Counted from the stretch's first letter, positions 6,183 through 60,879 are shown. The stretch is 64,000 bases of DNA from a virus (IMGVR_UViG_3300019487_000021), one strand, 5' to 3'. The notes: generated from the sequence alone by a model not told the origin. A program made the numbers and translations.

Positions 6183-6329
6183 CACTATATGATCAATGGT
6201 AGTCGGCGCTGGAGCGCGGCGGTGTCTTATAAACACTGGAGATCGGCTAGATTGGCTGGAACGGGAGGGATCGTAACCCTCGGCTACTACCAACGAATAT
6301 AGTGATAGAACCATATAATAAGGATATAA

Positions 6330-9637: not shown

Positions 9638-11370
9638 ATGTCAAAGCTCAACGCTCAGGGCAAGCGCCCAGTAAAGTCTACGTCTAACCATCGTTACGTA
9701 GCACCAGGAGTCCGTCACGTTCCTGTCGAAACTACTCTTGCTATTCCGGTAACGGAAACCGTCAGTGGAACAAAGAACCACTGCAGCACCTGTACGAACT
9801 TGCCGTGTCAACACTACTTGGTAAGGACACGTTCTACCGCACTAGCGACACACTTGTAAAGAATATGAAGACCAAGCTGAATGAAGCCGTTTCCATGGGT
9901 GCGTTTGACTTCGTTGCAAACGTTGCAATCCACGCTCGTGTGCAGATGGGCATCCGCTCACTGCCGATCATGTTGGTTGTCGAATTTGCAAAGATCCTCG
10001 CTGACTATCGTGCTCCGTACACGCAACAGCTGAACGACCTCCGTACACAACTCGCAAAGGCTCGCAGCGTAGCCAAAAAGCTTGAACTTGGTGACGAGAT
10101 TGCTCGTGTTCAGGCAATTGCGGAATCGTTCAACTACGAGAACATGCGCCGTTTGGTGTGTGATGTAATTCAGCGCGCCGACCAGATCACTGACCTCTAC
10201 GCTTATGCCCTTGAAGTGTTCGGTGGTAAGGGCAAGGTGCCGATGGCTGTGAAGCGTGGTGTAGCTGATGCTTTCAACAAGTTCAACGAATATCACTTCG
10301 GCAAGTACGACCGTGCTGGCTCGGTGAAATTCCGTGATGTACTGCGCATTGTTCATCCAACAGCTAAAAACGAGAAGCAAGGCGTGTTGTTTGAAAAGAT
10401 CATGAAGGAAACTCTAGCTACTCCGTACACTTGGGAAACCGAGCTTTCGAAGAATGGCCAGCTTCCGAAGGAAGAACGCCGTTCCGAGGCTCAAGTGTGG
10501 ACAGACTTGCTGGAGTCAGGCAAGCTTGGTTACATGGCTCTTCGTTCGAACGTTCGTAATATCATCAAGGCTGGTGTTGATGATGAAGTGATCGGTGTAT
10601 ACGTTGCAAGTGTGTTGGCTGATCCGAAGCGAGTTGTAGAAAGCAAGCAGTTCCCATTCAGCTTCATCCAGGCCCGCAATGCGATCCAGGAGGTTGGTGG
10701 TAACACGAAGATCCGTAACGCACTGGACAAGGCACTTGAGCTTTCATGCCGCAACATCCCAATGTTGGGCAAGAAGCTTGCTCTGATCATCGACAAGTCG
10801 GGATCGATGGTACAAGGCGTTTCAACGATGCCAGGCTTCACTCCGTTCGACCAGGCTGTAACACTAGCTGCAATGGTCGTAAAGGCACATGCAGATGCTG
10901 ATGACCTTGCCGTAATCGTGTTTGGTTCGGCCGCCGAAACACTAACAGACATCAACCCGAATGACAGCATCAACTCAATCGCGAACCGTATTCGCCAGTC
11001 AAAGGCTGGCGGTGGTACTCAATTCGATGTTGCGTTGCACGCGTTGAACCAGCTGGGATTCAAACCAGATGCCGTGCTTGTTATGACGGACGGTGAAATC
11101 AACAAGCTGTGGATCCAAGGCACGCGCCAGCTGGCTAGCATTCCATCGAGCACGTTGAAAGTTGTTGTCAACTTCCAGGCAGCAAACACAACTCCATTCC
11201 CAATCCGTGAAGGTTGGTATCCGATTGCAGGTTGGTCGGACAAGGTGTTCAAGTGGATTCCTGCGATCCACCAGAAAGTGACAGTTGTGGATGCGCTGTG
11301 TGCTCCATATGCGGGTGCAGAAGCAATGAAGGCTGCAATTCGCGCTGAAGCTGAAGAAACAGAAGAGTAA
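9638..11370 (+). CDS. rsr: Ro60/Rsr orthologue (TROVE plus vWA domains) with an apparent -1 frameshift near 9770-9800
   Basis: KFRDVLRIVHPTAKN matches the Ro60 motif SHKDLLRLSHLKPSS. vWA MIDAS LALIIDKSGSM...GGGTQ. RBS AAGGAG at ATG 9638 (frame 2); the body is in frame 1 from 9688 and has no ATG of its own. Confidence 0.7.
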
Positions 11371-17326: not shown

Positions 17327-17614
17327 ATGAGCACTTTCGCAGTCAAAGCTACTCGCATTCGTTCTATCGAGCCGATCGAAGGCGCCGACATGATTGAACT
17401 TGCTGTTGTCGGTGATTACCGTTCTGTGGTTCGGAAAGGTGATTACAAATCCGGTCAACTTGCTGTCTACATCCCTGAAGGGGCTGTACTACCTGAGTGG
17501 CTTATTGAGCGAATGGGCCTTACTGGCAAACTCGCAGGCAAACAAAAGAATCGTGTCAAGGCTGTTCGTCTTCGTGGTTGCTTGTCACAAGGTCTACTGT
17601 ATCCAGTCGATTGA
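17327..17614 (+). CDS. RNA-ligase N-terminal OB-like domain protein (Rnl5/DraRnl-family N-domain)
   Basis: 95-aa ORF whose stop overlaps the downstream ATG by one base (TGATG). Confidence 0.5.
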   Translation: MSTFAVKATRIRSIEPIEGADMIELAVVGDYRSVVRKGDYKSGQLAVYIPEGAVLPEWLIERMGLTGKLAGKQKNRVKAVRLRGCLSQGLLYPVD

Positions 17615-18492
17615 TGGCAGGACAAACGGCACATGACTATGAAGTTCCAACGGTTGCAACTCTCGACAATCGGGTTCTTGCAACGGAGGACAAAGACGTC
17701 GCCGAAGCTCTCGGCATTATCAAGTACGAGCCACCGATTCCTGCTTACATGAGCGGTGAAGTATATGCTGCTGGTCTCGATGTCACTGTCAAATATGACA
17801 TTGACAACTTCAAGGCTTTCCCGGACGTACTTGTCGATGGGGAACAAGTATCGTTTACGGAAAAACTTCATGGTACATTCTGCGGCATTGGCATTCTGCC
17901 GACTAGCCACTGGGATGACAAACACGTTCGTCGGAAGTTCGTTGTGTTCAGCAAAGGTCTTGGTGGTCAAGGGCATTGTTTCAAAGACACTGAACGTAAC
18001 TGGGGCAACGTATACTTTCGTGCGCTTACGGCTTCTGGCGTTTTCGAAAGACTCGAGACTCTAGTTGATCCTGCAGAAGAGTTCGACGATAAATTCTGGA
18101 ATACGCCAGTGTTTATTCTTGGCGAAGTCTACGGTAAGGGCATTCAGGATCTGGCCTACGGGATGAACGACATCAAGTTTCGAGTGTTTGACATCGCTTA
18201 CGGATATCGGAGTGAACTGAAATATGTCTGCCCGAAGTACATGCGTTTTGTTTGTGAGAATTTTGGCCTTGATTCTGTTCCAGTTCTTTACGAAGGCCCC
18301 TTCAGCAAGGAAGTCATGCTGCAGCATACAAAGGGGTGGGAGACTGTGTCAGGTGGGTCGGCGAATATTCGTGAAGGGATCGTTATTCGACCCACCCAGG
18401 AACGGTACGATCCAACTCTTGGTCGAGTGATCCTGAAAAGTGTAAGCGATGATTACTTGCTGCGCAAGGGCGAGATTACGGAGTACCAATGA
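17614..18492 (+). CDS. ATP-dependent RNA ligase nucleotidyltransferase domain (Rnl2/Rnl5-like)
   Basis: Motif I FTEKLHGT (KxHG). Confidence 0.6.
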   Translation: MAGQTAHDYEVPTVATLDNRVLATEDKDVAEALGIIKYEPPIPAYMSGEVYAAGLDVTVKYDIDNFKAFPDVLVDGEQVSFTEKLHGTFCGIGILPTSHWDDKHVRRKFVVFSKGLGGQGHCFKDTERNWGNVYFRALTASGVFERLETLVDPAEEFDDKFWNTPVFILGEVYGKGIQDLAYGMNDIKFRVFDIAYGYRSELKYVCPKYMRFVCENFGLDSVPVLYEGPFSKEVMLQHTKGWETVSGGSANIREGIVIRPTQERYDPTLGRVILKSVSDDYLLRKGEITEYQ

Positions 18493-26928: not shown

Positions 26929-27370
26929 CCAAATATGGGATCAATGGTATCTTGGTCTCGCAAAATATGTCTCAACAAAGTCAAAAGATCCATCAACAAA
27001 AACAGGAGCAGTGATCGTCCGTCCTGATAAGAGTTTGTGTTCAGTTGGCTTCAACGGTTTCCCTCAGAAGATGCCTGATCTTCCTGAGCTGTATGCTAAT
27101 AGAGAAGAGAAATATTCGAGGATCATCCATTGTGAGATGAACGCTTTGCTGTTTTCAAGAGATCAAACACTTGAAGATTACACACTTTACACATATCCTT
27201 TTATGAGTTGCGATCGTTGCTTCGAGCACATGGTTCAGAAGGGGATTATACGGTTCGTATATCCAAAGGCAACACCAGACCAACTGACACGATGGGGAGA
27301 CACTTTCGAACGCGTCCTCAGGTATGCTGAAGAGACTGGTGTTGAGATGGTTGAGTTAGAGATGGAGTAA
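26909..27370 (+). CDS. dCMP deaminase (zinc-dependent cytidine/deoxycytidylate deaminase)
   Basis: HCEMNAL and SCDRC zinc ligands; RBS AAGGAG. Confidence 0.8.
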   Translation: MEIAPIDQIWDQWYLGLAKYVSTKSKDPSTKTGAVIVRPDKSLCSVGFNGFPQKMPDLPELYANREEKYSRIIHCEMNALLFSRDQTLEDYTLYTYPFMSCDRCFEHMVQKGIIRFVYPKATPDQLTRWGDTFERVLRYAEETGVEMVELEME

Positions 27371-27868
27371 TGCGGTTATTGCAGTGCAGCTGAGAGGATT
27401 GTGAATACAATGCTCATCTAACCATTGTTGAATGAACACTTCTCCTCTTGATCGTTTGCACTTTGAGCAACCCGTTCCGTGCACATGATTGTTCGCTGTC
27501 ATTTCGAAAGACCCGTGTAACGGACACACTATAGTAACGCGCTTCATTTGTCCCAAATATTCAGTATTGCTACAATCGTAAAAATCACCGTGTCGCTTCC
27601 GTGCTTTTTCAATAAACTGATCTTTAGTGTGTCTATTTTTTGAATATTGCACTTGTTCTCGCTGTTCACGTGCACATTGGGGACAGCCGCTGCCGGTCAC
27701 ATGTGTACGCGCTTTCTGTTTGAAGATGCCGTGCTTTGAGCACCCAATATCAATCCAATCTTTGTAGGTAAAGGACAACGGTAGACCATTGTAATCATAC
27801 CTTTTAGTGTGAATTTCTGTTGCCCGTTTCAGAAATATTGCTCTATAATTGCTCATAAGCTTCTCCAT
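27356..27868 (-). CDS. Cys-rich zinc-finger protein, possibly homing-endonuclease-related
   Basis: Duplicated HG...GCPQC / HG..GCSKC modules; free-standing on the opposite strand between nucleotide-metabolism genes. Confidence 0.4.
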   Translation of the reverse strand: MEKLMSNYRAIFLKRATEIHTKRYDYNGLPLSFTYKDWIDIGCSKHGIFKQKARTHVTGSGCPQCAREQREQVQYSKNRHTKDQFIEKARKRHGDFYDCSNTEYLGQMKRVTIVCPLHGSFEMTANNHVHGTGCSKCKRSRGEVFIQQWLDEHCIHNPLSCTAITALLHL

Positions 27869-33352: not shown

Positions 33353-34168
33353 GTGGATCTCATCAACCCTGTAGAGTACGACGCCGTCGTAAACAAGTTA
33401 CGCACATTCTTTCGTGAGCGTTCATTCCTCGAAGTTCCTGTCCAGCACCGATTGAGTATCCTTGCGGCCTGTGAAGATCCACGAACCATCGGCACGTTCA
33501 GCTACGCAGGTGCGATGTGGCCGCTTCCACAGACTGGTCAGATGTGGTTAGAGTATGAACTACTTCACAATCCGTCCGCTAAAGGTTTTTACTGCATCAG
33601 CACCAGTTACCGCAATGAGCCAAATCCAATTCCTGGACGGCACGATTTGATCTTTCCGATGTTTGAATTCGAGACGCGAGGACAGCTAGAGGATCTCGAG
33701 CAACTTGAAATCGAACTGATCGCATATCTTGGTATTGCAAGACCCAGCGCCGTGCAGCGACTTGAGTATGCAAGAATTGCGGAATATTACAACACACAGA
33801 TTCTAACTGCTGAGCACGAGATCGAGATGCAGAGGGACTTTGGCCCTGCGATCTTACTCAAGAACTTCCCGCAGTACACGTCACCTTTCTGGAACATGCG
33901 AAAGGTCGGTGACAAAGCCAATAAGATTGACGTTCTACTGTACGGAATGGAAACAATCGGCTCTGCGGAGCGTAGTACCGACCCCGACGAGATGCGACAC
34001 TTGTTCCACACAATCTCCGATGGCATGTACGCAGACATTCTGTATTCACAGTTTGGCAAGGCACGGGTTGAGAAGGAACTCGAGGAATTTCTCTCGTTCG
34101 ACTTCTTCCCTAGATTCGGCGGTGGAATAGGTGTAACACGAATGATTCGTGCAATGAGGGCTGCTTGA
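33353..34168 (+). CDS. class II aminoacyl-tRNA-synthetase catalytic-core paralogue (EpmA/PoxA- or AsnA-like)
   Basis: Motif 2 YRNEPNPIPGRHDLIFPMFEFE; motif 3 FGGGIGVTRMIRAM; 271 aa with no anticodon-binding domain. Confidence 0.5.
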   Translation: MDLINPVEYDAVVNKLRTFFRERSFLEVPVQHRLSILAACEDPRTIGTFSYAGAMWPLPQTGQMWLEYELLHNPSAKGFYCISTSYRNEPNPIPGRHDLIFPMFEFETRGQLEDLEQLEIELIAYLGIARPSAVQRLEYARIAEYYNTQILTAEHEIEMQRDFGPAILLKNFPQYTSPFWNMRKVGDKANKIDVLLYGMETIGSAERSTDPDEMRHLFHTISDGMYADILYSQFGKARVEKELEEFLSFDFFPRFGGGIGVTRMIRAMRAA

Positions 34169-34330
34169 AATGGGCGCTGCTCGTGAAGGGTTTGATCTAT
34201 TCAACAAAAATGGACGACGAACATTTTGGAGCCATTTGAAGCGCGGTCGTTTCAACTCTTACGTATGGGGTGATACATTTAGTCAGCTGTGGTGTTGTAG
34301 GACACAATGTATACAATGCTGGTATAGCAG

Positions 34331-34558
34331 GTGAAAATGAACCCGGTGTGGTTGTTCGGACAGGTACTGGTACGTACACAACTCGAACAATTGCCGCATG
34401 TCGGCGCTGTCATCACTTCCTACTCAGACGTTGAACTTGGAGATTGTCCCATGTGTGCAGGCTACGGAGACGTAGCTGGCGGTCGCCGTAAATGCTATGA
34501 CTGTGATGGTACAGGGGAAGTTCAAGGTAAACAGTTCGAGTTGAACTTCCCTAAATAG
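34331..34558 (+). CDS. small DnaJ-type zinc-finger protein
   Basis: CPMCAGYG...CYDCDGTG. Confidence 0.45.
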   Translation: MKMNPVWLFGQVLVRTQLEQLPHVGAVITSYSDVELGDCPMCAGYGDVAGGRRKCYDCDGTGEVQGKQFELNFPK

Positions 34559-34644
34559 TGCTCTATGATTCAGCACTTGATGATTACGGAAGCAAGCTTC
34601 CCAGCTGAATAACCCCACTGATCATCCAACTATAGGAGCTAACT

Positions 34645-36153
34645 ATGTTTGGAATGAATTCCATAGTGGGTAAGAAATACTTCAAAGACGCACCGAAGGA
34701 TAGTCTGTTAGTCACATCTCGTTTTTTCACAATTCAAGGCGAGGGAATTTACCGCGGAATGCCGAGCTACTTCGTACGTTTAGCGAAATGCAATCTCGCA
34801 TGTTCATTCTGTTTTGTTGGCAACACAGAAATAGCAATGTCAAATAAACCACGCAAGAAAATCAAAGATGTCGTCGTTGGAGATGTTGTTGTCGCATATG
34901 ACGAAACAACTGGAACATTCGAGCCAGGAACCGTGTCACGTTTGTACCAATCTCAAACAGACGAACTCGTGTATATTCGCACAGCAACGGATCGAATCTA
35001 CTGCACGCCTGAACATCCGTTTTACGTTCGTGGTAAGGGTTGGATTAAAGCAATTGATTTACAACCGAGCGATGTTCTTCTACAAGCAGAATTTATTCAT
35101 AACGGTGAAATGGTCCATACCGTTGAGCGAATAGTGAAAGGCTCGGCTGCTTGGGTGCAACTTGCAGGATCAAAAGATGCTGCCTGTACAGTTTATAATT
35201 TTGAAGTTGATAAGTACCACAGCTATGTAGCGAACGGAAAGGTTGTACACAACTGCGACACGTACTTCGACTCTGGTGAGTATCAAACATACGACCAGAT
35301 CTTTGCCGACTGTGACAAAGAGATCGAAGCCTTCTATGCAAGGCGTAACATGAAAGTTCCAGCGTGGGCAAAGCATTGTGACGGATATTGGGAACCTACA
35401 GGAATAGATAATGCAATTGGCACTCCTCCAGAGGAATGGGTCGCTGAATCGAAACGTAAGGTTGTCCTAGTAATCACAGGCGGTGAACCAACACTTCAAA
35501 CGAACCTCACCGAATTCCTCGAACGAGCAAATAAGATTTTCTTTCACACACAAATCGAGAGTAACGGAACAGATCCTTTAACGTTACCAGATGCAACCAC
35601 GCTTGTGTGTTCACCAAAGTGTCTCGAGAAGAAGCAAGGCATGCAGAAAATCCCCGTGACGGCCTACTTCAGCGGCAACGATGAGCGTGGAGAAGGGATG
35701 TCAGGCCGGCCCTCATACGTTACGTACCACGAAGAGCCACGATACGTTGCCGTTCGATATCTTGAACCAAAGAAAGAGATGCTTGAACGTGCTGACTGTT
35801 TGAAGTTTGTTATGTGTGCTCCTGACGATGACCAAAGCCAGTTCACGCCATACAGTGAAGTTCCTCAGTGGGCACATGACTGGGCTGCAAACACTGGCAA
35901 GCCTGTGTTCGTATCGCCGATGAACATCTACCTGCAAGAGCCACAAAAGGCTAAGAACCTTCGTGCGCAAAAGCAGAGTGGTGAAATCACAATCGAAGAA
36001 CGGTCGACGGTCGACGAAGTCATTTCGTGGTGGGAAAACGATCTCCTTGATATGAAAAAGAATCACCGCAATCATGAATACGCAGCTGAATACTGCATGA
36101 GGCATGGATTTATCTTTCAAGTTCAACTACATTTGTTTGCGAGTCTTGCCTAA
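34645..36153 (+). CDS. queE: 7-carboxy-7-deazaguanine synthase QueE (radical SAM) interrupted by a mini-intein
   Basis: FTIQGEG, CNLACSF[intein]CDTYF, VLVITGGEPTL. Splicing would restore CNLACSFC (CxxxCxxC). Confidence 0.8.
   Translation: MFGMNSIVGKKYFKDAPKDSLLVTSRFFTIQGEGIYRGMPSYFVRLAKCNLACSFCFVGNTEIAMSNKPRKKIKDVVVGDVVVAYDETTGTFEPGTVSRLYQSQTDELVYIRTATDRIYCTPEHPFYVRGKGWIKAIDLQPSDVLLQAEFIHNGEMVHTVERIVKGSAAWVQLAGSKDAACTVYNFEVDKYHSYVANGKVVHNCDTYFDSGEYQTYDQIFADCDKEIEAFYARRNMKVPAWAKHCDGYWEPTGIDNAIGTPPEEWVAESKRKVVLVITGGEPTLQTNLTEFLERANKIFFHTQIESNGTDPLTLPDATTLVCSPKCLEKKQGMQKIPVTAYFSGNDERGEGMSGRPSYVTYHEEPRYVAVRYLEPKKEMLERADCLKFVMCAPDDDQSQFTPYSEVPQWAHDWAANTGKPVFVSPMNIYLQEPQKAKNLRAQKQSGEITIEERSTVDEVISWWENDLLDMKKNHRNHEYAAEYCMRHGFIFQVQLHLFASLA
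34810..35253 (+). mobile_element. mini-intein (148 aa, no endonuclease domain) in QueE
   Basis: Begins with Cys, block B TPEHPF, ends VVHN followed by a +1 Cys. Confidence 0.75.
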
Positions 36154-36155
36154 CA

Positions 36156-36682
36156 TGAAAATTGTTGCCAAGGCGCGAAACCGACGACTCGCCCGAGATG
36201 AGCGTAACTGGTATGAGTTTCTTAATGAGAACACGCTCCCGAGCGATTGTCAACTTGTGTCGGCAGTTAATGCTCATTACTATTTGACAGGAAAGAAAAT
36301 CAGACCGCTGTTCCCGCAGACCGAGGCGATGGAGCAGTACAACGAACTTGCTAAATTGGCAGGGTGCGAAGCAGGACCGGCAGTTTCGATTGAGAAAGTC
36401 TATGATAAACTTGGTTTGGTTGTGGTTCAAGCAGAACGACACATGTCATTTTGCGATTTGCCAGATGAACGACCCGTCGAGGCGACCATTTATCATCAGC
36501 GGTATGGTGCGCACTCCGTGCTGATTATCGACAAAGAACCGAAAACGGAAGCGGTGCAGGTTTTGAACTTCAAGTACGGAACAACAACGATGGGTTGGAT
36601 CTTTATGGAAGAATTCAGCATCTTTGCTCACCATCACGCATTGGCAATGTGGAAAGTATTTGATCTTCGTCGGACGCGTTAA
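36156..36682 (+). CDS. hypothetical protein
   Basis: ORF. Confidence 0.4.
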
Positions 36683-36712
36683 CTTCTGTACGGTGTGTAT
36701 TTGACTGCAAGT

Positions 36713-37102
36713 TTAACGTGACATCGACGTAGCGAGAAGTAAAGAAGTCACTCTTTCGTGATGTTGGCAAAAGAACAAGATCTGGACTGCCAGGCACTGG
36801 TTCACCACGGATCTTCTCTGGATCGACATCCCGATTACCTTCTTCTGCATCGGATCAACGACACCGATGAGTTTGACTTTAGATGTATCATGAACGAACC
36901 ATTGGTAGTTAGAGCCGCCAGGCATTGATTTCAAAAGCCCAAGTTGGGAAGCCTTTGCGTAGGCATTACTTAACTCTTGGCGCTGTTCTGCGTACAGTTC
37001 AGTCTTTGGAACAAAGTTCACTCTACTCAGTGCGGAGTACAGACTGTTAAAGTCTCCTGAATATGCGGTGGAGGATAGAGAGTTCATTTCTTTGAGTTTC
37101 AT
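36713..37102 (-). CDS. hypothetical protein
   Basis: Minus ORF, ATGA-coupled to the next gene. Confidence 0.4.
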   Translation of the reverse strand: MKLKEMNSLSSTAYSGDFNSLYSALSRVNFVPKTELYAEQRQELSNAYAKASQLGLLKSMPGGSNYQWFVHDTSKVKLIGVVDPMQKKVIGMSIQRRSVVNQCLAVQILFFCQHHERVTSLLLATSMSR

Positions 37103-37530: not shown

Positions 37531-37626
37531 GTGGGACAGCAAAAGAAGCTAGTTTATCGTGCAGGACTGATTCCGTACGTTGTCGAAGGAGGCAATGTTC
37601 GGATGATGTTTATGCGTCCGTCGAAC
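37531..37626 (+). pseudogene. 5' fragment of a NUDIX gene (VGQQKKLVYRAGLIPYVVEGGNVRMMFMRPS)
   Basis: About 70% identical to the N-terminus of the NUDIX gene at 38452; lies on the other side of the GIY-YIG gene. Confidence 0.5.
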
Positions 37627-38423
37627 TAGATCGCTAAATACTTCCACACAAATCCGCCTGCAGTTTTAGAACGTCCTTTGCAACACTCTAAAAGAGTGTT
37701 TGGATGCTTATTAACACTTTTTGCTGCTTGCACCATCGATGGAAATGTTGCAACATAGACACCGTCTTTGGTGTATTGCAGCACCGGTCGAAAATTTTTA
37801 CCTTTGTGTGGATTTGTCCATGTTTTCTTCGTTGGATTCCAACTGTGCAGGGATACATCTTTCCATGTCCATCGAAATCCACTAACGGAGCGAATTTTAT
37901 TGTTGACACATCTAGAAAGAGAACCTGTGTCGATACCTTTAATTGTGTCTCGTACTTGTTGGAGAGTACTGAAGGAACACACATATTGTCCACTAAGAGT
38001 ATATTGGTCATATCCTCTCGAATGATTGATCTGTCGTCGTCGGCTTTGTTCTCGCCATTGTTCAGAACGAATGTGACCAGAAACTCCCTCACCCCCATCA
38101 GTCATGTTACATAGTATTCCTGTTTTGTTATCTCTTCGTCCATATCGTCTTATTAAAGCCTTTTCAATGTCAAAGGCTTGTTGTTCACTACGACACACGT
38201 AACGTTGTATGTGAACTTTGCCCGCAGTTCGAAGCACCTTTCTGATTTTATTCTTTAACAGTTGATTATTATGAGTTGTCGTTTCATATAGCCTATCATG
38301 ATACCAAACGTGTTGATACATTCGATCGCCTGTTCCCTTACCAACATAAAATGGTTGATTCATAGTTGGATCGATGAGTTTGTACACATAGAAGCGACGA
38401 GTTGAGGGTAACACAATATTCAT
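37626..38423 (-). CDS. GIY-YIG homing endonuclease with C-terminal NUMOD-like repeats
   Basis: YVYKLIDPTMNQPFYVGKGTGDR...R..Y...NMTDGGEG; GFRW and GFVWKY repeats. Confidence 0.8.
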   Translation of the reverse strand: MNIVLPSTRRFYVYKLIDPTMNQPFYVGKGTGDRMYQHVWYHDRLYETTTHNNQLLKNKIRKVLRTAGKVHIQRYVCRSEQQAFDIEKALIRRYGRRDNKTGILCNMTDGGEGVSGHIRSEQWREQSRRRQINHSRGYDQYTLSGQYVCSFSTLQQVRDTIKGIDTGSLSRCVNNKIRSVSGFRWTWKDVSLHSWNPTKKTWTNPHKGKNFRPVLQYTKDGVYVATFPSMVQAAKSVNKHPNTLLECCKGRSKTAGGFVWKYLAI

Positions 38424-40711: not shown

Positions 40712-41179
40712 ATGGGCAAGAAATTCGTTTCCACAAAAACTTACAAAGAGATTGCACCAGTTGCTTATCGTCAATGGCGCGACGATGGAAACTGTCAATG
40801 GGTTCATGGTTACGCTCTATCGTTTCACTTTGAATTTGAATGTGATGACCTTGACGCTCGCAACTGGTGCGTCGATTTCGGTGGTTTGCGTCCTCTGAAA
40901 GACTTACTCGAGGAGTGGTTCGATCACAAACTTCTCGTCGCTCAAGATGATCCTCATCGTGAGGCATTACTCAACCTAGACAAGCTAGGAATTGCCCAAG
41001 TAACGGAAGTTGAAAAGACTGGTTGCGAGGGTCTATCTGAGTTCTTGTACAACTACGTCAATGATTGTTTCCTAAAAGATTATGGCTGGAGCAATCGTGT
41101 GTGGTGTTGCAAGGTTGAAGTTCGTGAAAACGAAAAGAACAGTGCAATGCGCGTTGGACATCGTCCAGAGGCAGAATAA
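40712..41179 (+). CDS. queD: 6-carboxy-5,6,7,8-tetrahydropterin synthase (QueD/PTPS family)
   Basis: CQWVHGYALSFHFEFE (Cx3HGH-type zinc and catalytic site). Confidence 0.7.
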   Translation: MGKKFVSTKTYKEIAPVAYRQWRDDGNCQWVHGYALSFHFEFECDDLDARNWCVDFGGLRPLKDLLEEWFDHKLLVAQDDPHREALLNLDKLGIAQVTEVEKTGCEGLSEFLYNYVNDCFLKDYGWSNRVWCCKVEVRENEKNSAMRVGHRPEAE

Positions 41180-46111: not shown

Positions 46112-46372
46112 ATGAAATTGTTCAAAGTTTCCAAAGATGTTCCGGGTCGTTTGATCAATTCACAAGACAAAACGGAAAGGCCGTTTCTTACCCGACGCGA
46201 GTTCATCTTTGGACGCGAGGATATTGCCCTCGATCCTGTGACTGTGTACAATCAATCTCGTACGGTGATTCATGAGTACGGGTTTGTTTACGGCACTCCT
46301 GAACAACGTGAAAAGTATGTGCTGATCATTCCAGCACAGTTCGTTGAGATGATCCTTCCCGAGGACGACTGA
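46112..46372 (+). CDS. hypothetical protein
   Basis: ORF, ATGA overlap with cca. Confidence 0.4.
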
Positions 46373-47412
46373 TGAAAGTTTATCAAGTTGGTGGTTGCGT
46401 CCGAGACCGATTGCTCGGCCGAACACCCAAAGACATCGACTACGTTGTGGTCGGCTCCACACCTGAAGAAATGCTCGCATTGGGGTTTCAACAGGTCGGT
46501 GCATCATTCCCAGTCTTTCTAAAAGATGGCAGTGAATACGCACTAGCTCGTACCGAACGCAAAACTGGTGTTGGTTACACTGGTTTCACAACAAGTCACG
46601 ATCCTTCCGTTACGTTGGAGGAAGACCTCCGCCGTCGCGACTTGACAATTAACTCCATGGCGTGGGACGAAGAGACGAACGCGTTGATTGATCCGTTCTT
46701 GGGCCAAGTAGACCTAGAGATGAAGGTGCTGCGTCATACGAGCAAAGCGTTTGCCGAAGATCCAGTTCGCGTGTTGCGTACAGCACGATTTGCTGCACGA
46801 TACAATTTCCAAATCTTTGCAGACACGCAGGAAATGATGGCTGCAGTTGCGCATGAACTCGATTACGTTCCTCAAGAACGGATTTGGGCTGAAATTGAAA
46901 AGGGTCTAATGGAGCGTTATCCGGACAATATGTTCCTGTGGCTCAAACACTGTAAGGTGTTCGATAAGTGTGGCGCACTTAAGCCATATGCTTCATTCGA
47001 TTGCGTACGACTAGCAAATGCTGTTGATGCTGATCTCGTTACACGATTCGTATTCGTTTCTGTTAATTTTACCGCGGACGATTACGCGATTTGTCGTGTG
47101 CCGACTGAACCGGCGGAAGTCGCACAAATGTTCCACAGCAACTTCAGTAGCTTTGAAAAGTACTTGTCGTTCAACACATCAAAGTGTTTGGATCTGTTGT
47201 ACAAGATGCGTGCATTCAGTGGCGGCAGCAAGACGTTTCTCAAGTGTATGGAAGTTTTGAGTCATTATCCGGAGCTTGAGATGCAACGCTCAATGCTTCT
47301 TGCAGATTACAACAACGCAAAGAACATTGACACAGCTGCAATCGCCGCGAAACACACTAGCGGTACTCAGATCAAGGAAGCGATCTATTTTGCACGATTG
47401 GCTGAACTTTAG
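46372..47412 (+). CDS. cca: tRNA nucleotidyltransferase (CCA-adding enzyme, head domain)
   Basis: [21 protein letters not shown] (GGxVRD...DxD) plus downstream RRDLTIN. Confidence 0.75.
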
Positions 47413-53069: not shown

Positions 53070-53141
53070 GGGTTCATGATGTAACGGCTAGCATAGGAGG
53101 CTTTTACCCTCTCTGTCAGAGTTCGAATCTCTGTGAACCTA
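53070..53141 (+). tRNA. tRNA-Lys (anticodon UUU)
   Basis: Acceptor GGGTTCA/TGAACCT, D-arm ATGT..GCAT, anticodon arm GGAGG-CTTTTAC-CCTCT, T-arm CAGAG-TTCGAAT-CTCTG. Confidence 0.8.
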
Positions 53142-53487
53142 CTTAGGATTTTACAGAATGACAAGTTTACTTGGTTCCACGACTAACCAAACATTAAACT
53201 GTCTTAGCCTTAGCAACCAAGTCACATGCGGCACAGCCGCCCCCCAGAAGGTCAAGTTACTTGGTGGACCAAATCGATGTTGTAATCGATGTATTATTAC
53301 CTTGTGCATAGTCGGTGACGTAATAGAAGCGCCATATTGACCACCCAAGTGACCACCCAAGGTATGATGGTCGAGCGGAAGGTGAAGATAATCAGCGAGA
53401 TCTGCTGCGAAGTCACCGAGACTATCCAAATCACCTAGGTCGTTTGTAATTTCGAAAAGTTTCATGTAGTTATTTAGTGTTCTTTGT

Positions 53488-53550
53488 TCCGGGAGAGGCG
53501 TCGTGGTGACAGCCGCGATGACGGTGGTTCAAATCCAGCCGCCAGGACCA
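53488..53550 (+). pseudogene. degenerate tRNA paralogue (cannot form an acceptor stem)
   Basis: Shares GGGAGAGGCG with the adjacent tRNA-Asn and has the T-loop-like GGTGGTTCAAATCCAGCC, but no complementary 3' acceptor strand. Confidence 0.45.
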
Positions 53551-53552
53551 AT

Positions 53553-53630
53553 TGTGGGAGAGGCGCCAGGGTGGCAACCGCTCCGCTGTTAACGGAGACT
53601 AGACAGGTTCGATTCCTGTTCCCACAGCCA
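53553..53630 (+). tRNA. tRNA-Asn (anticodon GUU), irregular D region
   Basis: Acceptor TGTGGGA/TCCCACA, anticodon arm CTCCG-CTGTTAA-CGGAG, T-arm ACAGG-TTCGATT-CCTGT, G plus CCA. Confidence 0.65.
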
Positions 53631-53812
53631 TATTTTATGGCTCCTAATTTCAATAGGAGCCATATTGGAGTACGAAGACAGGTCGAAAACGAAAGTATCA
53701 TGGGAATATTTATAAGAGCCTATGCTCGCGGCCCATTGATACTTCGCGTTGTGGTTGCCGACTGCAGGTTTGTTCACATTCATGAGTGGCTCCTTGAAGA
53801 ACGCACCTTACC

Positions 53813-54052
53813 CTAGTTATCTTGATTTGGCAACTTGAATGAGATATCGTATGATGCAAACGAAGCACGAATCCGCTCCAGCGCCTCGGAGGGCCAGTCT
53901 TTTGTTGCTTGTTCCAAAGCGATGGCTAGCCGGGCTAACTTAAGCCCACTGCACCTTGCTTTCTCTATCTCGTTTTGAATGCAATTCGGATGGTTGCACT
54001 CACGGATATTGTTGACGGCAGTAGCGATCAGCACGTCGAACCATCTTTCCAT
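53813..54052 (-). CDS. small hypothetical protein
   Basis: Minus-strand ATG preceded by GGGAGGTGTCG. Confidence 0.45.
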   Translation of the reverse strand: MERWFDVLIATAVNNIRECNHPNCIQNEIEKARCSGLKLARLAIALEQATKDWPSEALERIRASFASYDISFKLPNQDN

Positions 54053-54087
54053 CGACACCTCCCGCGGAAACCCACGAGAGGTATTTA

Positions 54088-54180
54088 GGGTTATTCTTCG
54101 GAATCGCGATAAAGAGCATCGAACGTTTTGTCGTCGAACGTTTAATCAGGTTGATCAGGGTTCGAGTCCCTGGCGACCCA
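54088..54180 (+). ncRNA. tRNA-like remnant (T-arm plus acceptor-like 3' end; 5' part does not fold)
   Basis: CAGGG-TTCGAGT-CCCTG then GCGACCC-A. Candidate 5' strand GGGTTAT lies 93 nt upstream. Internal direct repeats CGAACGTTT x2 and ATCAGG x2. Confidence 0.3.
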
Positions 54181-54279
54181 CAACTCGAGGAGATGCAATA
54201 AATAATGATATGATACTCCAAGAAATTTTCCAACAAATCAGTGATGTGTGGGCTAATTGGAAACGTAAGTGTCCGTTTT

Positions 54280-54351
54280 GCTCCAACGGCGCAGAGGAAG
54301 CGCACTCGCTTGGTAAGCGAGCGGTCCTAAGTTCGAGTCTTAGTTGGAGCA
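54280..54351 (+). tRNA. tRNA-Thr (anticodon GGU)
   Basis: GCTCCAA/TTGGAGC, D GCGC..GCGC, CTCGC-TTGGTAA-GCGAG, CTAAG-TTCGAGT-CTTAG. Confidence 0.75.
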
Positions 54352-54445
54352 CATACAATGCTTGGATAGTTCAGTCTGCTTTACTGCCCCCTGGGTTTGG
54401 TTGGATTGATACGTTTTTCACCTCACCCGCGGAGCAAAGATTTAT

Positions 54446-54522
54446 CCTAGAGTAGTTCAGCCTGGCAGAACGCTCGCCCGATTAGCGAGATGTCGGTGGT
54501 TCAAATCCATCCTCTAGGACCA
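54446..54522 (+). tRNA. tRNA with anticodon loop CCGAUUA (GAU/Ile if canonical positions; C33 unusual)
   Basis: CCTAGAG/CTCTAGG, D GTTC..GAAC, CTCGC-CCGATTA-GCGAG, GGTGG-TTCAAAT-CCATC, A plus CCA. Confidence 0.6.
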
Positions 54523-54531
54523 AGATTCAAT

Positions 54532-54604
54532 TGTTCCGTATTTTAATTGGCAGACTGCATGCTTGATAGGCGTGTCGGTGTAGGTTCGAGTCCTACCGGA
54601 ACAA
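54532..54604 (+). tRNA. tRNA, anticodon loop UUGAUAG (GAU/Ile?), irregular D-arm
   Basis: TGTTCCG/CGGAACA, CATGC-TTGATAG-GCGTG, GTAGG-TTCGAGT-CCTAC. Confidence 0.5.
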
Positions 54605-54722
54605 CATAAATACAAGTTTATGGTAGTGAAAATTTTGTAAAGGAAATTCTCAAGATGTTTGGATGGACACTACAGGTGGTCCGAGATCACGAAGCTCGGC
54701 ATCGGCAAGAACATCCACCAAC

Positions 54723-54796
54723 GGACCGCAAGCATTAAGGTGATGCAGTAGGCTCTTAACCTACAGAACACGGGCCAGTACCGTGGCGGTCTACCA
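54723..54796 (+). tRNA. tRNA-Lys (anticodon CUU) with a non-canonical T-loop GCCAGUA
   Basis: GGACCGC/GCGGTCT, D GCAT..ATGC, GTAGG-CTCTTAA-CCTAC, CACGG-GCCAGTA-CCGTG, A plus CCA. Confidence 0.6.
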
Positions 54797-54804
54797 AAAT
54801 TCTT

Positions 54805-54879
54805 GCTTCGTAAACTTTGACGGTGAAGCCCACTCCTGTAAAGTGGCGGAAGTAGGTTCGAATCCTACACGGAGCTCCA
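54805..54879 (+). tRNA. tRNA-Thr (anticodon UGU; C33)
   Basis: GCTTCGT/ACGGAGC, CCACT-CCTGTAA-AGTGG, GTAGG-TTCGAAT-CCTAC, T plus CCA. Confidence 0.6.
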
Positions 54880-54979
54880 AGTTGTTGCGAAGGACACTAC
54901 GGTTACTTCATTCACTTTGCGTAATGGCTGGAGGCGGAAGCCTCCGTTTCCGTATCCGACTTTTAACTCAACTTTGATT

Positions 54980-55057
54980 GGGGCATTAGCTCAGCTTTGG
55001 GAGAGCGCTACGTTTGCACCGTAGAGGTCGTCGGTTCGATCCCGACATGCTCCACCA
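54980..55057 (+). tRNA. tRNA-Ala (anticodon UGC)
   Basis: GGGGCAT/ATGCTCC, D GCTC..GAGC, CTACG-TTTGCAC-CGTAG, GTCGG-TTCGATC-CCGAC, A plus CCA. Confidence 0.8.
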
Positions 55058-55572
55058 ATCTAAACAAGGAGACGACCATGCTTAAGGAAGGAGTTTGCAG
55101 CAATTTGTGACTAACACAGATGAATCTGGTCGTTTCATGTGATGTTGGACGAAGTAACTATGTGTGGGATAATGTTTCATTTTGGAGAATGAACCATGTA
55201 TAACCAATGTGTATCATTGCTTTTGTGCTTGTTCGGTTCATCAGTAGCACGCTATTGCTGTGTCACTGGATGACAGAGAAAGGATGGCTTAAACCATCGT
55301 AACATCTCAACGAACTGGTCGTAGATAGTCGTAGATACTCGTAGATACTCAATTCGTAAAAGTGAAGCCTGGATCTTTCTCGACAAGAAAGACACGGGCT
55401 ACATCTTTTGTGACGAGACGGACAACTTCCCACGAGCGCTTGTGGTTGATCTTGCCCACACTCTGTTTCACATGATACGAAAGGATAATCGTTTCAATGA
55501 ACCTGATGATGTTTTGAGAGCACTTGCTCGTGCTCGTTTGCAAGATCAAGCTGTAAACATCATCGACAATTT

Positions 55573-55646
55573 GCTCCCATAGTTCAGTGGTAGAATGCGA
55601 TCTTGGTAGGATTGAGACACAGGTTTGATTCCTGTTAGGAGCACCA
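55573..55646 (+). tRNA. tRNA-Thr (anticodon GGU), second copy
   Basis: GCTCCCA/TAGGAGC (one mismatch), CGATC-TTGGTAG-GATTG, ACAGG-TTTGATT-CCTGT, A plus CCA. Confidence 0.6.
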
Positions 55647-55810
55647 TGAAAGTAATCGAGCCAGGCCACGTGTATGAACTCCAACACCTTGAGAGTGAAG
55701 GCGTTGAACGTTTGACGTTTATCAAACGATCGTCAGGTGCAGTTGACTATGGCGATCAAGAAGTGAATACGAAATTGAACTTCTTCCGACTGGTCGGGAC
55801 GGACATGTGA
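55646..55810 (+). CDS. small hypothetical protein (54 aa)
   Basis: ATG overlaps the tRNA CCA end; RBS AGGAG lies inside the tRNA 3' end. Confidence 0.35.
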   Translation: MKVIEPGHVYELQHLESEGVERLTFIKRSSGAVDYGDQEVNTKLNFFRLVGTDM

Positions 55811-55814
55811 TTGT

Positions 55815-56030
55815 ATGACACTCAAAGAAAAGATTGCAATGTACGAGGGGCTGCTTCACGACATCCAAATGTATCGTGAGGTTACGCTTGACGGCGAGAA
55901 AGTGAAACAGCTGCTCGATAACATTGGCGCTTGGAGTTACGCGCATCGTGTTGGCAATGGAATGCTAACAGATCGCCAACAGAAGCGGTTGATTACTGCT
56001 AAGTTCAAAAAGTTGCGAGAAGTGACCTAA
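55815..56030 (+). CDS. hypothetical protein
   Basis: ORF. Confidence 0.4.
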   Translation: MTLKEKIAMYEGLLHDIQMYREVTLDGEKVKQLLDNIGAWSYAHRVGNGMLTDRQQKRLITAKFKKLREVT

Positions 56031-56059
56031 GTGATTTTTCCACGATAGAGGTATCGAAA

Positions 56060-56410
56060 ATGGCAAAGTTTAACCGCAGTAAGATTCAGGTGTATCAGTA
56101 TGATCATCTTTCAACATCAGATTTTGAGAGCATCTCTCTGGATGATATGATCGCAAAGTTGCAGAAGCTTCGCGATAGGCATGGCGGCGAAGGTAGGTTC
56201 AATCTTGAGATTGAGTATTACGACAACACCGACGTCAAAATTGAGGTGTCATCCTATCGAGAAGAAACAGACGAGGAACTCTTGCATCGCGTGACGGTGC
56301 ACAAGGCTTTAGAAAAGCACAAGCGTGATGATGCGAAGGCGCGTAAGGCCTTCCGTGAGGAACACGATCGTAAGGAATTTGAGCGTCTTTCGAAGAAGTT
56401 CGGAAAATAA
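56060..56410 (+). CDS. hypothetical protein
   Basis: RBS GAGGTATCGAAA. Confidence 0.45.
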   Translation: MAKFNRSKIQVYQYDHLSTSDFESISLDDMIAKLQKLRDRHGGEGRFNLEIEYYDNTDVKIEVSSYREETDEELLHRVTVHKALEKHKRDDAKARKAFREEHDRKEFERLSKKFGK

Positions 56411-56415
56411 TTAAC

Positions 56416-56489
56416 GGGTCTGTGATGTAATGGTAGCCTGCGGCTCTTACAAGGCTGATGCGACAGTTCGATTCTGTCCGGACCTACCA
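56416..56489 (+). tRNA. tRNA-Val (anticodon UAC), irregular D-arm
   Basis: GGGTCTG/CGGACCT (two GU pairs), CGGCT-CTTACAA-GGCTG, GACAG-TTCGATT-CTGTC, A plus CCA. Confidence 0.5.
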
Positions 56490-56499
56490 TGGAGGTTGT

Positions 56500-56652
56500 A
56501 TGCGCGATGACCGAGACTTTCCTTTGCTACTCACTTGCTGGGATCTGAATCAGCAGCGCGAAGTAGATTACGTGCCGTACATACGGTGGTGTTCCCACAT
56601 CATTCTCTTTGTCGGCAACCAGTGGTACCGTCTGGACAAATCTGCTCTGTAG
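56500..56652 (+). CDS. small hypothetical protein
   Basis: RBS GGAGG. Confidence 0.35.
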   Translation: MRDDRDFPLLLTCWDLNQQREVDYVPYIRWCSHIILFVGNQWYRLDKSAL

Positions 56653-56653
56653 T

Positions 56654-56727
56654 GCCCCTTTAGTTTAGTGGTAGAACACAACTCTCGTAAAGTTGGGACG
56701 TCAGTTCGATTCTGACATGGGGCTCCA
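56654..56727 (+). tRNA. tRNA-Thr (anticodon CGU)
   Basis: GCCCCTT/ATGGGGC (one mismatch), GTTT..GAAC, CAACT-CTCGTAA-AGTTG, GTCAG-TTCGATT-CTGAC, T plus CCA. Confidence 0.65.
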
Positions 56728-59769: not shown

Positions 59770-60879
59770 ATGAACATACGTCAAAAACAGCTGTGGGACA
59801 ACCTGTTAGCCCTAACGAAGGCTAACGAGGTGTTCTACCATCAGGAATTCACCCTTGATGGCAAACGGTATTGGATTTTCAACTATCGCTTGGCTTCCTA
59901 TACCGACTTCCTTCAACCCGACGCGTTGGAGTGTCGTGGGCATATGTTCGAAGTTGATCAAAATGATCAACCGGTCCGCCTGGCGGCCTGGCCATGTGAA
60001 AAGTTCTTCAACTTGAACGAAAATCCTTTGACGATTGGCCTTGATCTTACAAAGGTTGTTCGCATCGAGGACAAAGTTGATGGATCGTTGATGTCTACGT
60101 ACATCCACGATGGTGTGCTTCGTCTCAAGTCGCGCGGTTCGTTGTTCTCCGACCAGGCGCTTGCAGCAATGCGCTTTTTGGAAACTGATCGACTTTTGTG
60201 GGAAATGTTGTATAATATCACCGACAAAGGCTATACGGTTAACCTCGAGTGGTGTGCACCCGAACATCGGATTGTAATTGGTTATCCACAAGCTCACTTA
60301 CGTGTGTTGAATGTTCGTTCGACAGCAGATGGCACGTATCAAGATCTGTCACAAGTACCACAGATGAAGAATTACTGGGTACCTATACATGATGTTGTTG
60401 ATCCTGTTGTATTTGTTGCTTCGATCAAGGATATGACTGGTGTCGAGGGTTATGTTGTAACTCTTGAGGGCGGTCTGCGCGTAAAAATCAAGTGCGAATG
60501 GTACATGTCTCTTCATCACACAAAGGATTCAATCAACAATCCACGTCGATTGTTTGAGTCAATCTTAGATGAAGCGATCGACGACCTACGCGCGATGTTC
60601 TACGACGACGTTGTTGCAATGCAAATGATCGACGAGATGGAAAAGAAAGTCGATCAGGTGTATAATGGTATGGTCAACATGGTCGAAGGCTACTACGCTG
60701 AGAACAAGCACTTGTCTCGCAAAGACTATGCTATCAAGGCGCAAACGCATTTCAAGGACACGTTGTATTTTGGACTTGCAATGGGAAAGTACATAGGCCG
60801 CGCTTTCTCGTATAAAACATTCCTTAAATCCAAATGGCGTGATCTGGGTTTGAAGGACACCTCTCTGGAGGAATTATAA
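59770..60879 (+). CDS. T4 Rnl1-like ATP-dependent RNA ligase (tRNA-repair type)
   Basis: Motif I RIEDKVDGSL (KxDGS); 369 aa like T4 Rnl1. Confidence 0.6.
   Translation: MNIRQKQLWDNLLALTKANEVFYHQEFTLDGKRYWIFNYRLASYTDFLQPDALECRGHMFEVDQNDQPVRLAAWPCEKFFNLNENPLTIGLDLTKVVRIEDKVDGSLMSTYIHDGVLRLKSRGSLFSDQALAAMRFLETDRLLWEMLYNITDKGYTVNLEWCAPEHRIVIGYPQAHLRVLNVRSTADGTYQDLSQVPQMKNYWVPIHDVVDPVVFVASIKDMTGVEGYVVTLEGGLRVKIKCEWYMSLHHTKDSINNPRRLFESILDEAIDDLRAMFYDDVVAMQMIDEMEKKVDQVYNGMVNMVEGYYAENKHLSRKDYAIKAQTHFKDTLYFGLAMGKYIGRAFSYKTFLKSKWRDLGLKDTSLEEL

Follow-up and report, generated by a model that had tools for sequence, protein, structure and literature searches.

The window analyzed here, a stretch of 64,000 nucleotides (nt) from the virus IMGVR_UViG_3300019487_000021, harbors a queE gene whose product, a radical S-adenosylmethionine (SAM) enzyme, carries in frame a Hint domain that is very probably a mini-intein (Table 1). 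The open reading frame (ORF) translates as YFVRLAKCNLACSF, continues through the insert as CFVGNTEIAM...CTPEHPF...HSYVANGKVVHN and resumes with CDTYFDSGE. The insert comprises exactly 444 nt, or 148 amino acids (aa), in frame (residues 56-203), with codon 56 (TGT) at 34810, codon 203 (AAC) at 35251-35253 and codon 204 (TGC) at 35254, and its blocks occur in the order Cys1, TPEH (block B), C-terminal His-Asn and then Cys at +1. C49 and C53 of the N-extein are the first two Fe-S ligand cysteines. The original prediction had placed a mini-intein precisely at the third cysteine of the CxxxCxxC motif, at 34810-35253, which proved correct to the base, and the features that it listed (Cys1, block B TPEH, the terminal HN and the +1 Cys) are all present in the translation. 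Four contigs assembled independently of one another (JGI, ENA and two Logan runs) are identical in this gene and in up to 5 kb of the DNA around it, which excludes an assembly artefact, and six metagenome contigs on record encode the identical protein, one of them spanning 0.2-1 Mb.

When residues 56-203 are removed, a 354-aa protein reading CNLACSF-CDTYF is obtained. This conceptually spliced sequence matched phrog_2076 ("QueE-like radical SAM domain") over its whole length (9.3e-44), its only significant PDB matches were the three solved QueE families (6nhl, 5tgs and 4njg), and its five best NCBIfam matches were all QueE models. The PDB alignment crosses the splice junction uninterrupted, e.g., CNLACSFCDTY versus GCPVGCAWCDTK; QueE of E. 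coli (6nhl) reads GCPVGCAW at the cluster motif, and that of B. subtilis is represented by 5tgs. In addition, the QueE signature D-T-x-F/Y after the cluster motif is present in the conceptually spliced CNLACSFCDTYF. As originally expected, removal of the insert restores CNLACSF/CDTYF (slashes mark splice junctions throughout), colinear both with the solved structures of QueE and with some 40 homologues that lack an intein. By comparison, the Pfam Radical_SAM match on the unspliced precursor was faint. The QueE encoded here belongs to a divergent, phage-type clade. A megablast of positions 34000-37000 against 50,697 phage records gave no match, indicating that the phage is uncultivated; the best tblastn matches of QueE in cultured phages were Rhizobium phage RHph_I1_18 (46%) and Sinorhizobium phage Phosso (44%), and in the 106 records of cultured phages with a tblastn match, the intein was not seen. 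Compared with its closest homologues, the C-extein also contains two lineage-specific insertions of ~20 and ~35 aa (at ~35377-35448 and ~35647-35748), both modeled with low confidence (predicted local distance difference test, pLDDT, 48-61), and the homologue P0015 has insertions in the same two loops.

The identity of the insert was supported at the level of both sequence and fold. The Pfam check for a Hint domain that had been suggested for the 148 aa returned PT-HINT (2.6e-15) and Intein_splicing (1.3e-11), the NCBIfam models intein_Nterm (28.2 bits, cutoff 24.5) and intein_Cterm (25.9 bits, cutoff 15.6) both exceeded their curated cut-offs, and sequence matches in PDB comprised BIL domains and the inteins Spl DnaX, NrdJ-1, Pho RadA, Mtu RecA and Ssp DnaB. 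The AlphaFold model of the intein, with 53 homologues as input, had a pLDDT of 95.8 and a predicted template modeling score (pTM) of 0.88, with its lowest pLDDT (82) at residues 91-100, around Q92/A93. Foldseek comparison of this model with BIL and intein structures gave template modeling (TM) scores of 0.80-0.84 (0.80 for the Ssp DnaB intein and 0.84 for 2lwy). The Hint resemblance is far beyond chance. Among the properties of class 1 inteins, the Hint fold, Cys1 together with TxxH, His-Asn followed by Cys+1, and colinear intein-free alleles were all found, and blocks B to F occur without an endonuclease domain, as in a mini-intein. The claim that no homing-endonuclease domain is present likewise held, as all 148 aa fall within the Hint model and the insert of ~190 aa seen in relatives is missing at Q92/A93. 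An intron removed at the RNA level was also considered and was ruled out by the continuous ORF and the Hint fold of the insert. No second intein was detected in the window by the QueE-intein profile, which does not cover other Hint families.

Table 1. Coordinates of the queE precursor gene and of the parts of its intein within the window.
Feature	Position	Strand	Details or basis
queE precursor ORF	34645-36153	+	502 aa, 57.2 kDa; stop codon counted in
AGGAG, Shine-Dalgarno-like	34634-34638	+	6 nt 5' of ATG; read from sequence
N-extein, 55 aa, C-terminus C49-N-L-A-C53-S-F55	34645-34809	+	Aligned to QueE 6nhl and 5tgs
Mini-intein (very probable), class-1-type, 148 aa, 16.6 kDa	34810-35253	+	Pfam, NCBIfam, PDB, AlphaFold (AF2), Foldseek
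Cys1 (block A)	34810-34812	+	Cys in 76/76 QueE inteins
Block B, T66-P-E-H69-P-F	35005-35022	+	T 75/76, H 76/76, P70 76/76
Q92/A93 junction, deletion scar	35083-35088	+	Alignment with P0001, P0002, P0111 and P0004
Blocks F and G, VYNFEVDKYHSYVANGKVVHN, with N130, H137, penultimate H147 and terminal N148	35191-35253	+	NCBIfam intein_Cterm
Cys+1 (C204)	35254-35256	+	C-D-T after the intein in 76 aligned intein-bearing QueE homologues
C-extein, 299 aa, remaining QueE radical-SAM barrel (GGEP, QIESNG and later motifs)	35254-36150	+	

A search of 5.8 billion proteins returned 1,678 matches, the best 120 of which were inspected. An intein occupied the identical site in 79 of these metagenomic homologues (C-x3-C-x-F/C-F...H-N/C-D-T), while the comparison with related QueE proteins proposed at the outset also yielded intein-free alleles, about 40 of the 120 being colinear and reading CNLACSFCDTYFDSG. 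No non-intein insert was found at the site among the homologues examined, each being either intein-free or equipped with a Hint domain bearing the splicing residues; a collinear insert of another kind had been named beforehand as the observation that would speak against an intein. Lengths, conservation and pairwise identities were obtained from the 76 inteins that could be delimited cleanly. Long forms of 316-358 aa (57 inteins) coexist with minis of 134-194 aa (19 inteins), and identity to the window intein ranges from ~28% to 61%. Cys1, T66, H69, P70, N130, H137, H147, N148 and Cys+1 are invariant or almost so (N130 and N148 in 76/76, H137 and H147 in 75/76), and the retention of the splicing residues at such low intein identity indicates purifying selection for splicing. 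The window intein aligns with the long forms over all 148 residues, the latter having ~190 extra residues between Q92 and A93; this central domain is probably a homing endonuclease. The mini forms differ in their deletion end points, implying several independent losses of the central domain. One intein-free homologue (P0060), with an extein 70.6% identical, bears the NCBI name of a QueE from a "Candidatus Thorarchaeota archaeon" metagenome-assembled genome (MAG), and probably stems from a phage contig that was assigned to the archaeal genome on binning.

The relationships of exteins and inteins suggest horizontal movement of the element. The closest exteins are intein-free (P0008, 83%; P0014, 79%; P0017, 78%; P0037, 74% identity), the closest inteins are full-length (P0002, P0111 and P0001, ~61%), one of them residing in an extein 45% identical, and extein and intein identities were weakly correlated across 2,850 pairs (Pearson 0.37, Spearman 0.17). 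Around the site, the empty allele of P0008 has the same amino acids but differs at 23 of 90 nucleotides, indicating a diverged lineage and ruling out recent excision. The 24-nt spliced "empty site" junction was absent from the metagenome and viral collections scanned, as was the occupied N-junction used as a control, indicating that the phage is not in those collections. The four identical contigs showed no variation over the gene and flanks, leaving no population variation for a ratio of nonsynonymous to synonymous substitutions. The G+C content is 42.8% in the intein, 46.7% in the extein and 46.4% in the window; an argument for recent import from this difference was dropped, the offset being too small against the local range of 41-50%. 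With respect to other mobile elements, the start codon of queE is overlapped by a free-standing GIY-YIG/NUMOD3 endonuclease gene in phages of the P0008 type (L005, 9349-10017; L006, 8406-9089; L007, 9349-10017). The window itself has an HNH homing endonuclease gene, also free-standing (37626-38423, minus strand; phrog_314 and phrog_20162), 1.5 kb 3' of queE. In these phages, several kinds of mobile element thus target queE.

A related intein at the third cysteine is not confined to this QueE clade. HMMER searches with the intein against 1.84 billion representative proteins gave 10,045 matches at E <= 1e-3, of which 998 reached E <= 1e-10, and the best 150 were examined for their insertion context. 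At least 31 further 50%-identity clusters among them carry a related intein directly after C-x3-C-x2, near residue 36-61; their spliced length is mostly 216-290 aa, and all but one go on with C-D-T/S/A/E. After nine of these had been conceptually spliced and scanned, a QueE model was the best match in eight, which came from different QueE subfamilies, and one spliced cluster reached 197.9 bits versus the 206.1 cut-off of the B. subtilis QueE type. The ninth, P0191 (CNLACDY/C...HN/CSSEMPG), is an unclassified, non-QueE radical-SAM protein, and the remaining matches in the best 150 were mostly tandem BIL/PT-HINT-like domains. Moreover, in IMG/VR related inteins were found at the third cysteine of an Rv2578c-like protein (L090, CPYNCLY/CFPAGT...VVHN/CYANAF) and of CXXX-repeat-maturase-like radical-SAM/SPASM proteins (L111 and L112, CSLQCTY/C...HN/CYQFNK), the latter type scoring 331 bits with TIGR04115 after splicing. 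The arrangement is therefore less special than the original prediction had implied: inteins are present at this site in numerous QueE clades as well as in further radical-SAM families, and on sequence comparison the third cysteine of the radical-SAM motif recurs as a niche for viral inteins. In species-representative cellular genomes, none of the best 80 loci had a radical-SAM context, and the Hint domains there were all BIL-like.

Other cysteines of the motif may be occupied as well. Two loci, L123 (IMGVR_UViG_3300031521_000072) and L124, have two inteins in an Rv2578c-like protein (ORF from locus position 2278) and read DVWDGLV/CIAKGQ...MLVHN/CPFACIY/CFPSDT, i.e., inteins at the first and third cysteines with a 7-residue extein between them, whereas in L090 the intein is at the third cysteine only. 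P0153 reads TEDCNLA/CFVAGT and may have its intein at the second cysteine.

Taken together, the insert is very probably a canonical class 1-type, cis-splicing mini-intein in the queE gene of a large uncultivated phage, a selfish element whose central domain has been deleted. Under the established class 1 mechanism, from which the splicing chemistry is taken, the Hint domain would fold within the precursor (computed mass 57.2 kDa), and Cys1, assisted by T66 and H69 of block B, would attack the F55-C56 bond in an N-S acyl shift. C204 (Cys+1) would then receive the N-extein by trans-thioesterification, cyclization of Asn148 with the assistance of H147 and H137 would free the intein (computed mass 16.6 kDa), and an S-N shift would yield QueE (computed mass 40.7 kDa) with the sequence CNLACSF-CDTYF and the triad C49, C53 and C204, whereby C204 would become the third ligand of the [4Fe-4S] cluster. 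The ancestor would have been a full-length intein of the same family with a central domain of ~190 aa, which spread among phage queE alleles and later lost this domain, and the element would persist because the essential cysteine triad can be preserved only by exact removal of the insert from the protein. In the AlphaFold model of the precursor both parts were folded confidently (pLDDT 86), and a fold search with the whole precursor returned intein and BIL matches only, none of them informing the QueE part. The precursor is probably inactive, as its 17-kDa insert would lie over the SAM/cluster site, separating the cluster loop from the helix that follows in the barrel. The original prediction further held that enzyme activity would depend strictly on splicing, which is an inference and not a result; it overlooked that the unspliced precursor still displays C49-x3-C53-x2-C56, with Cys1 of the intein standing in for the third cysteine.

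Several observations weigh against this interpretation. Both the splicing and the inactivity of the precursor are what we infer from the features described above. The nearest neighbors of the intein in sequence and structure are BIL/PT-HINT domains and not classical inteins, and the central domain of the full-length relatives matched a DUF559/Vsr-like nuclease in Pfam only weakly (E = 0.14), which makes the type of endonuclease tentative. The Asp at block F position 4, which is typical of class 1 inteins though not universal, is replaced by Asn130 (35197-35199), a residue that we take to be equivalent to this position from an alignment to Ssp DnaB and Mtu RecA, Asp being also present in Npu DnaE; given its invariance in 76/76 sequences, Asn130 is probably functional, though not the textbook residue. 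As for the host protein, the top NCBIfam score (TIGR04322, 64.7 bits) falls below the equivalog cut-off of 200, and the QueE assignment is based on the PHROG, PDB and best NCBIfam matches. Finally, FolE, QueC and DpdA/TGT were not found among the window ORFs scanned and may lie outside the window.

Among the other explanations, redox- or Fe-S-gated conditional splicing appears possible but unlikely. Here, a Cys-3/Cys1 disulfide, or ligation of a cluster or metal, would sequester the nucleophile, and the oxygen-labile QueE would mature only in a reducing, Fe-S-replete cell, a view compatible with a selfish origin. Four cysteines (-7, -3, 1 and +1) crowd the splicing center, with the triad C49-NLA-C53-SF-C56 present in the precursor; the Cys1/Cys+1 pair and both upstream cysteines occur in every QueE intein allele examined; and the architecture recurs in at least four radical-SAM families. 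In the MoaA intein of Pyrococcus abyssi, moreover, a native Cys-3/Cys1 disulfide stops splicing until it is reduced (PMC3922620, PMC10663303). However, the enzyme itself requires the upstream cysteines, and their presence is therefore no evidence of regulation; in addition, catalytic residues are the usual intein sites in general, and many close QueE relatives are without an intein. A more far-reaching version, in which the third cysteine is a dedicated viral radical-SAM intein niche and Fe-S- or disulfide-gated splicing switches phage 7-deazaguanine synthesis by the redox or Fe-S state of the host, is rather improbable.

It is very doubtful that the insert is a decayed, non-splicing Hint domain that either inactivates queE or is tolerated by the barrel as a permanent 17-kDa insertion. 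Such decay would agree with the loss of the endonuclease domain and with the Asn in place of the common Asp in block F, and the confident precursor model makes a folded unspliced protein conceivable, but the splicing residues are all intact and invariant across 76 diverged alleles, the ORF is unbroken, the extein is 83% identical to that of an intein-free homologue with all QueE motifs kept, and the insert would cover the SAM/cluster site, as deduced from radical-SAM structures. BIL domains generally occur in proteins that are not conserved, often secreted ones or toxins, and there in variable regions; they usually lack the +1 nucleophile. That the insert is a BIL/PT-HINT domain merely cleaving or rearranging its host protein without splicing, as its top Pfam match (PT-HINT), its top PDB sequence and fold matches (6y75, 6tmm and 2lwy) and the tandem BIL-like domains of its relatives in cellular genomes might suggest, is extremely unlikely, given that a conserved enzyme is interrupted at a catalytic residue that does not vary, that His-Asn and Cys+1 are present, and that intein-free alleles are exactly colinear across the junction.

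Regarding the genomic context of queE, a QueD/PTPS gene (40712-41179) is located 4.5 kb 3' of it, and nucleotide metabolism is well represented among the neighboring genes, which encode an IMPDH-like protein, a dCMP deaminase, a dCTP deaminase, a phosphoribosyltransferase and a NUDIX protein. The genes for the dCMP and dCTP deaminases are separated by a DUF723 ORF (27356-27856, minus strand). About 480 nt 5' of queE, a 271-aa ORF on the plus strand (33353-34168) encodes a class II aminoacyl-tRNA-synthetase-like protein (Pfam tRNA-synt_2) matching phrog_29758 (2.5e-107), a PHROG of unknown function; its product may act as an amino-acid or ammonia ligase in deazaguanine synthesis, or else have a tRNA-related role. 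The window also contains eleven tRNA genes (85-159, 6198-6292 and 53070-56727), including tRNA-Asn(GUU) and a 95-nt call of tRNA-Ile(UAU), as well as an RNA-repair set consisting of a Ro/TROVE-VWA protein (9805-11370), an Rnl2-like RNA ligase (17578-18492), a T4 Rnl1-like RNA ligase (46372-47412) and a CCA-adding enzyme (59770-60879). tRNA-Asn(GUU) is a substrate for queuosine. The tRNA genes and the RNA-repair set suggest that QueE might act in tRNA rather than DNA modification.

No report of a QueE intein was found in the literature searched, and the main text of a large intein census does not mention radical-SAM proteins (PMC4760082). QueE thus appears to be undescribed as an intein host in the literature searched, yet it is abundant as such in metagenomes, whereas the kind of element is already known, with inteins at active-site residues in general and at this cysteine in Rv2578c-type proteins and probably in MoaA. 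Through this element, the radical-SAM step of 7-deazaguanine synthesis, which leads to preQ0, queuosine, archaeosine and phage DNA modification, joins the intein hosts. The allele is common in environmental phages, and the coexistence of full-length, repeatedly miniaturized and empty sites provides a series suited to the study of intein invasion, endonuclease decay and persistence. For annotation, it is relevant that unspliced QueE precursors score under the family cut-offs and get mislabeled. Small phage mini-inteins with Cys1 and Cys+1 also represent raw material for protein engineering and redox or Fe-S gating, if true, would add a new level of post-translational control to a pathway of phage anti-restriction.

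With regard to known systems, the spliced extein falls into the same PHROG (phrog_2076) as the QueE of phage 7-deazaguanine DNA modification (PMC6884629, PMC10516641), likewise with QueD/PTPS nearby, and differs from that system in that DpdA, FolE and QueC were not found among the window ORFs scanned. The closest Hint relatives are the BIL domains of Clostridium thermocellum (2lwy) and Tetrahymena BUBL BIL2 (6y75), with E 1e-11, TM scores of 0.83-0.84 and 24-30% identity; unlike these, the QueE intein sits at a conserved catalytic site and would regenerate a conserved host protein. The engineered or natural mini-inteins Ssp DnaB (1mi8), Mtu RecA (2in0), Spl DnaX (7cfv) and NrdJ-1 (8ubs) have the same endonuclease-free Hint fold (TM 0.73-0.80) and share Cys1, TxxH, HN and the +1 nucleophile with the QueE intein, although their identity to it is 18-27% and their hosts are replication or nucleotide-metabolism proteins. 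A closer parallel in terms of insertion site is the curated NCBIfam family NF038136 ("intein-containing Rv2578c family radical SAM protein"), in which the intein occupies the corresponding cysteine, likewise the third. Residues 79-198 of L090 align contiguously, from the Cys motif into the intein, to NF038136 positions 53-172, residues 49-86 of the window protein align to positions 69-106, and inteins of this type are detectable with the QueE intein profile; the extein of NF038136, however, is SplB-like and not QueE, and the window protein, at 21 bits versus a cut-off of 700, is no member. Finally, the MoaA intein of P. abyssi resembles the QueE intein in its radical-SAM host and in having Cys at -3 and 1 (C53 and C56 here), its CxxC spacing being that expected at the third cysteine of CX3CX2C and its product an oxygen-labile Fe-S enzyme; the sameness of the insertion site is deduced from the Cys-3/Cys1 description and not from the MoaA sequence. 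The two differ in that MoaA belongs to a hyperthermophilic archaeal host and its redox control is experimental, whereas the QueE intein resides in a phage and its redox control is hypothetical.

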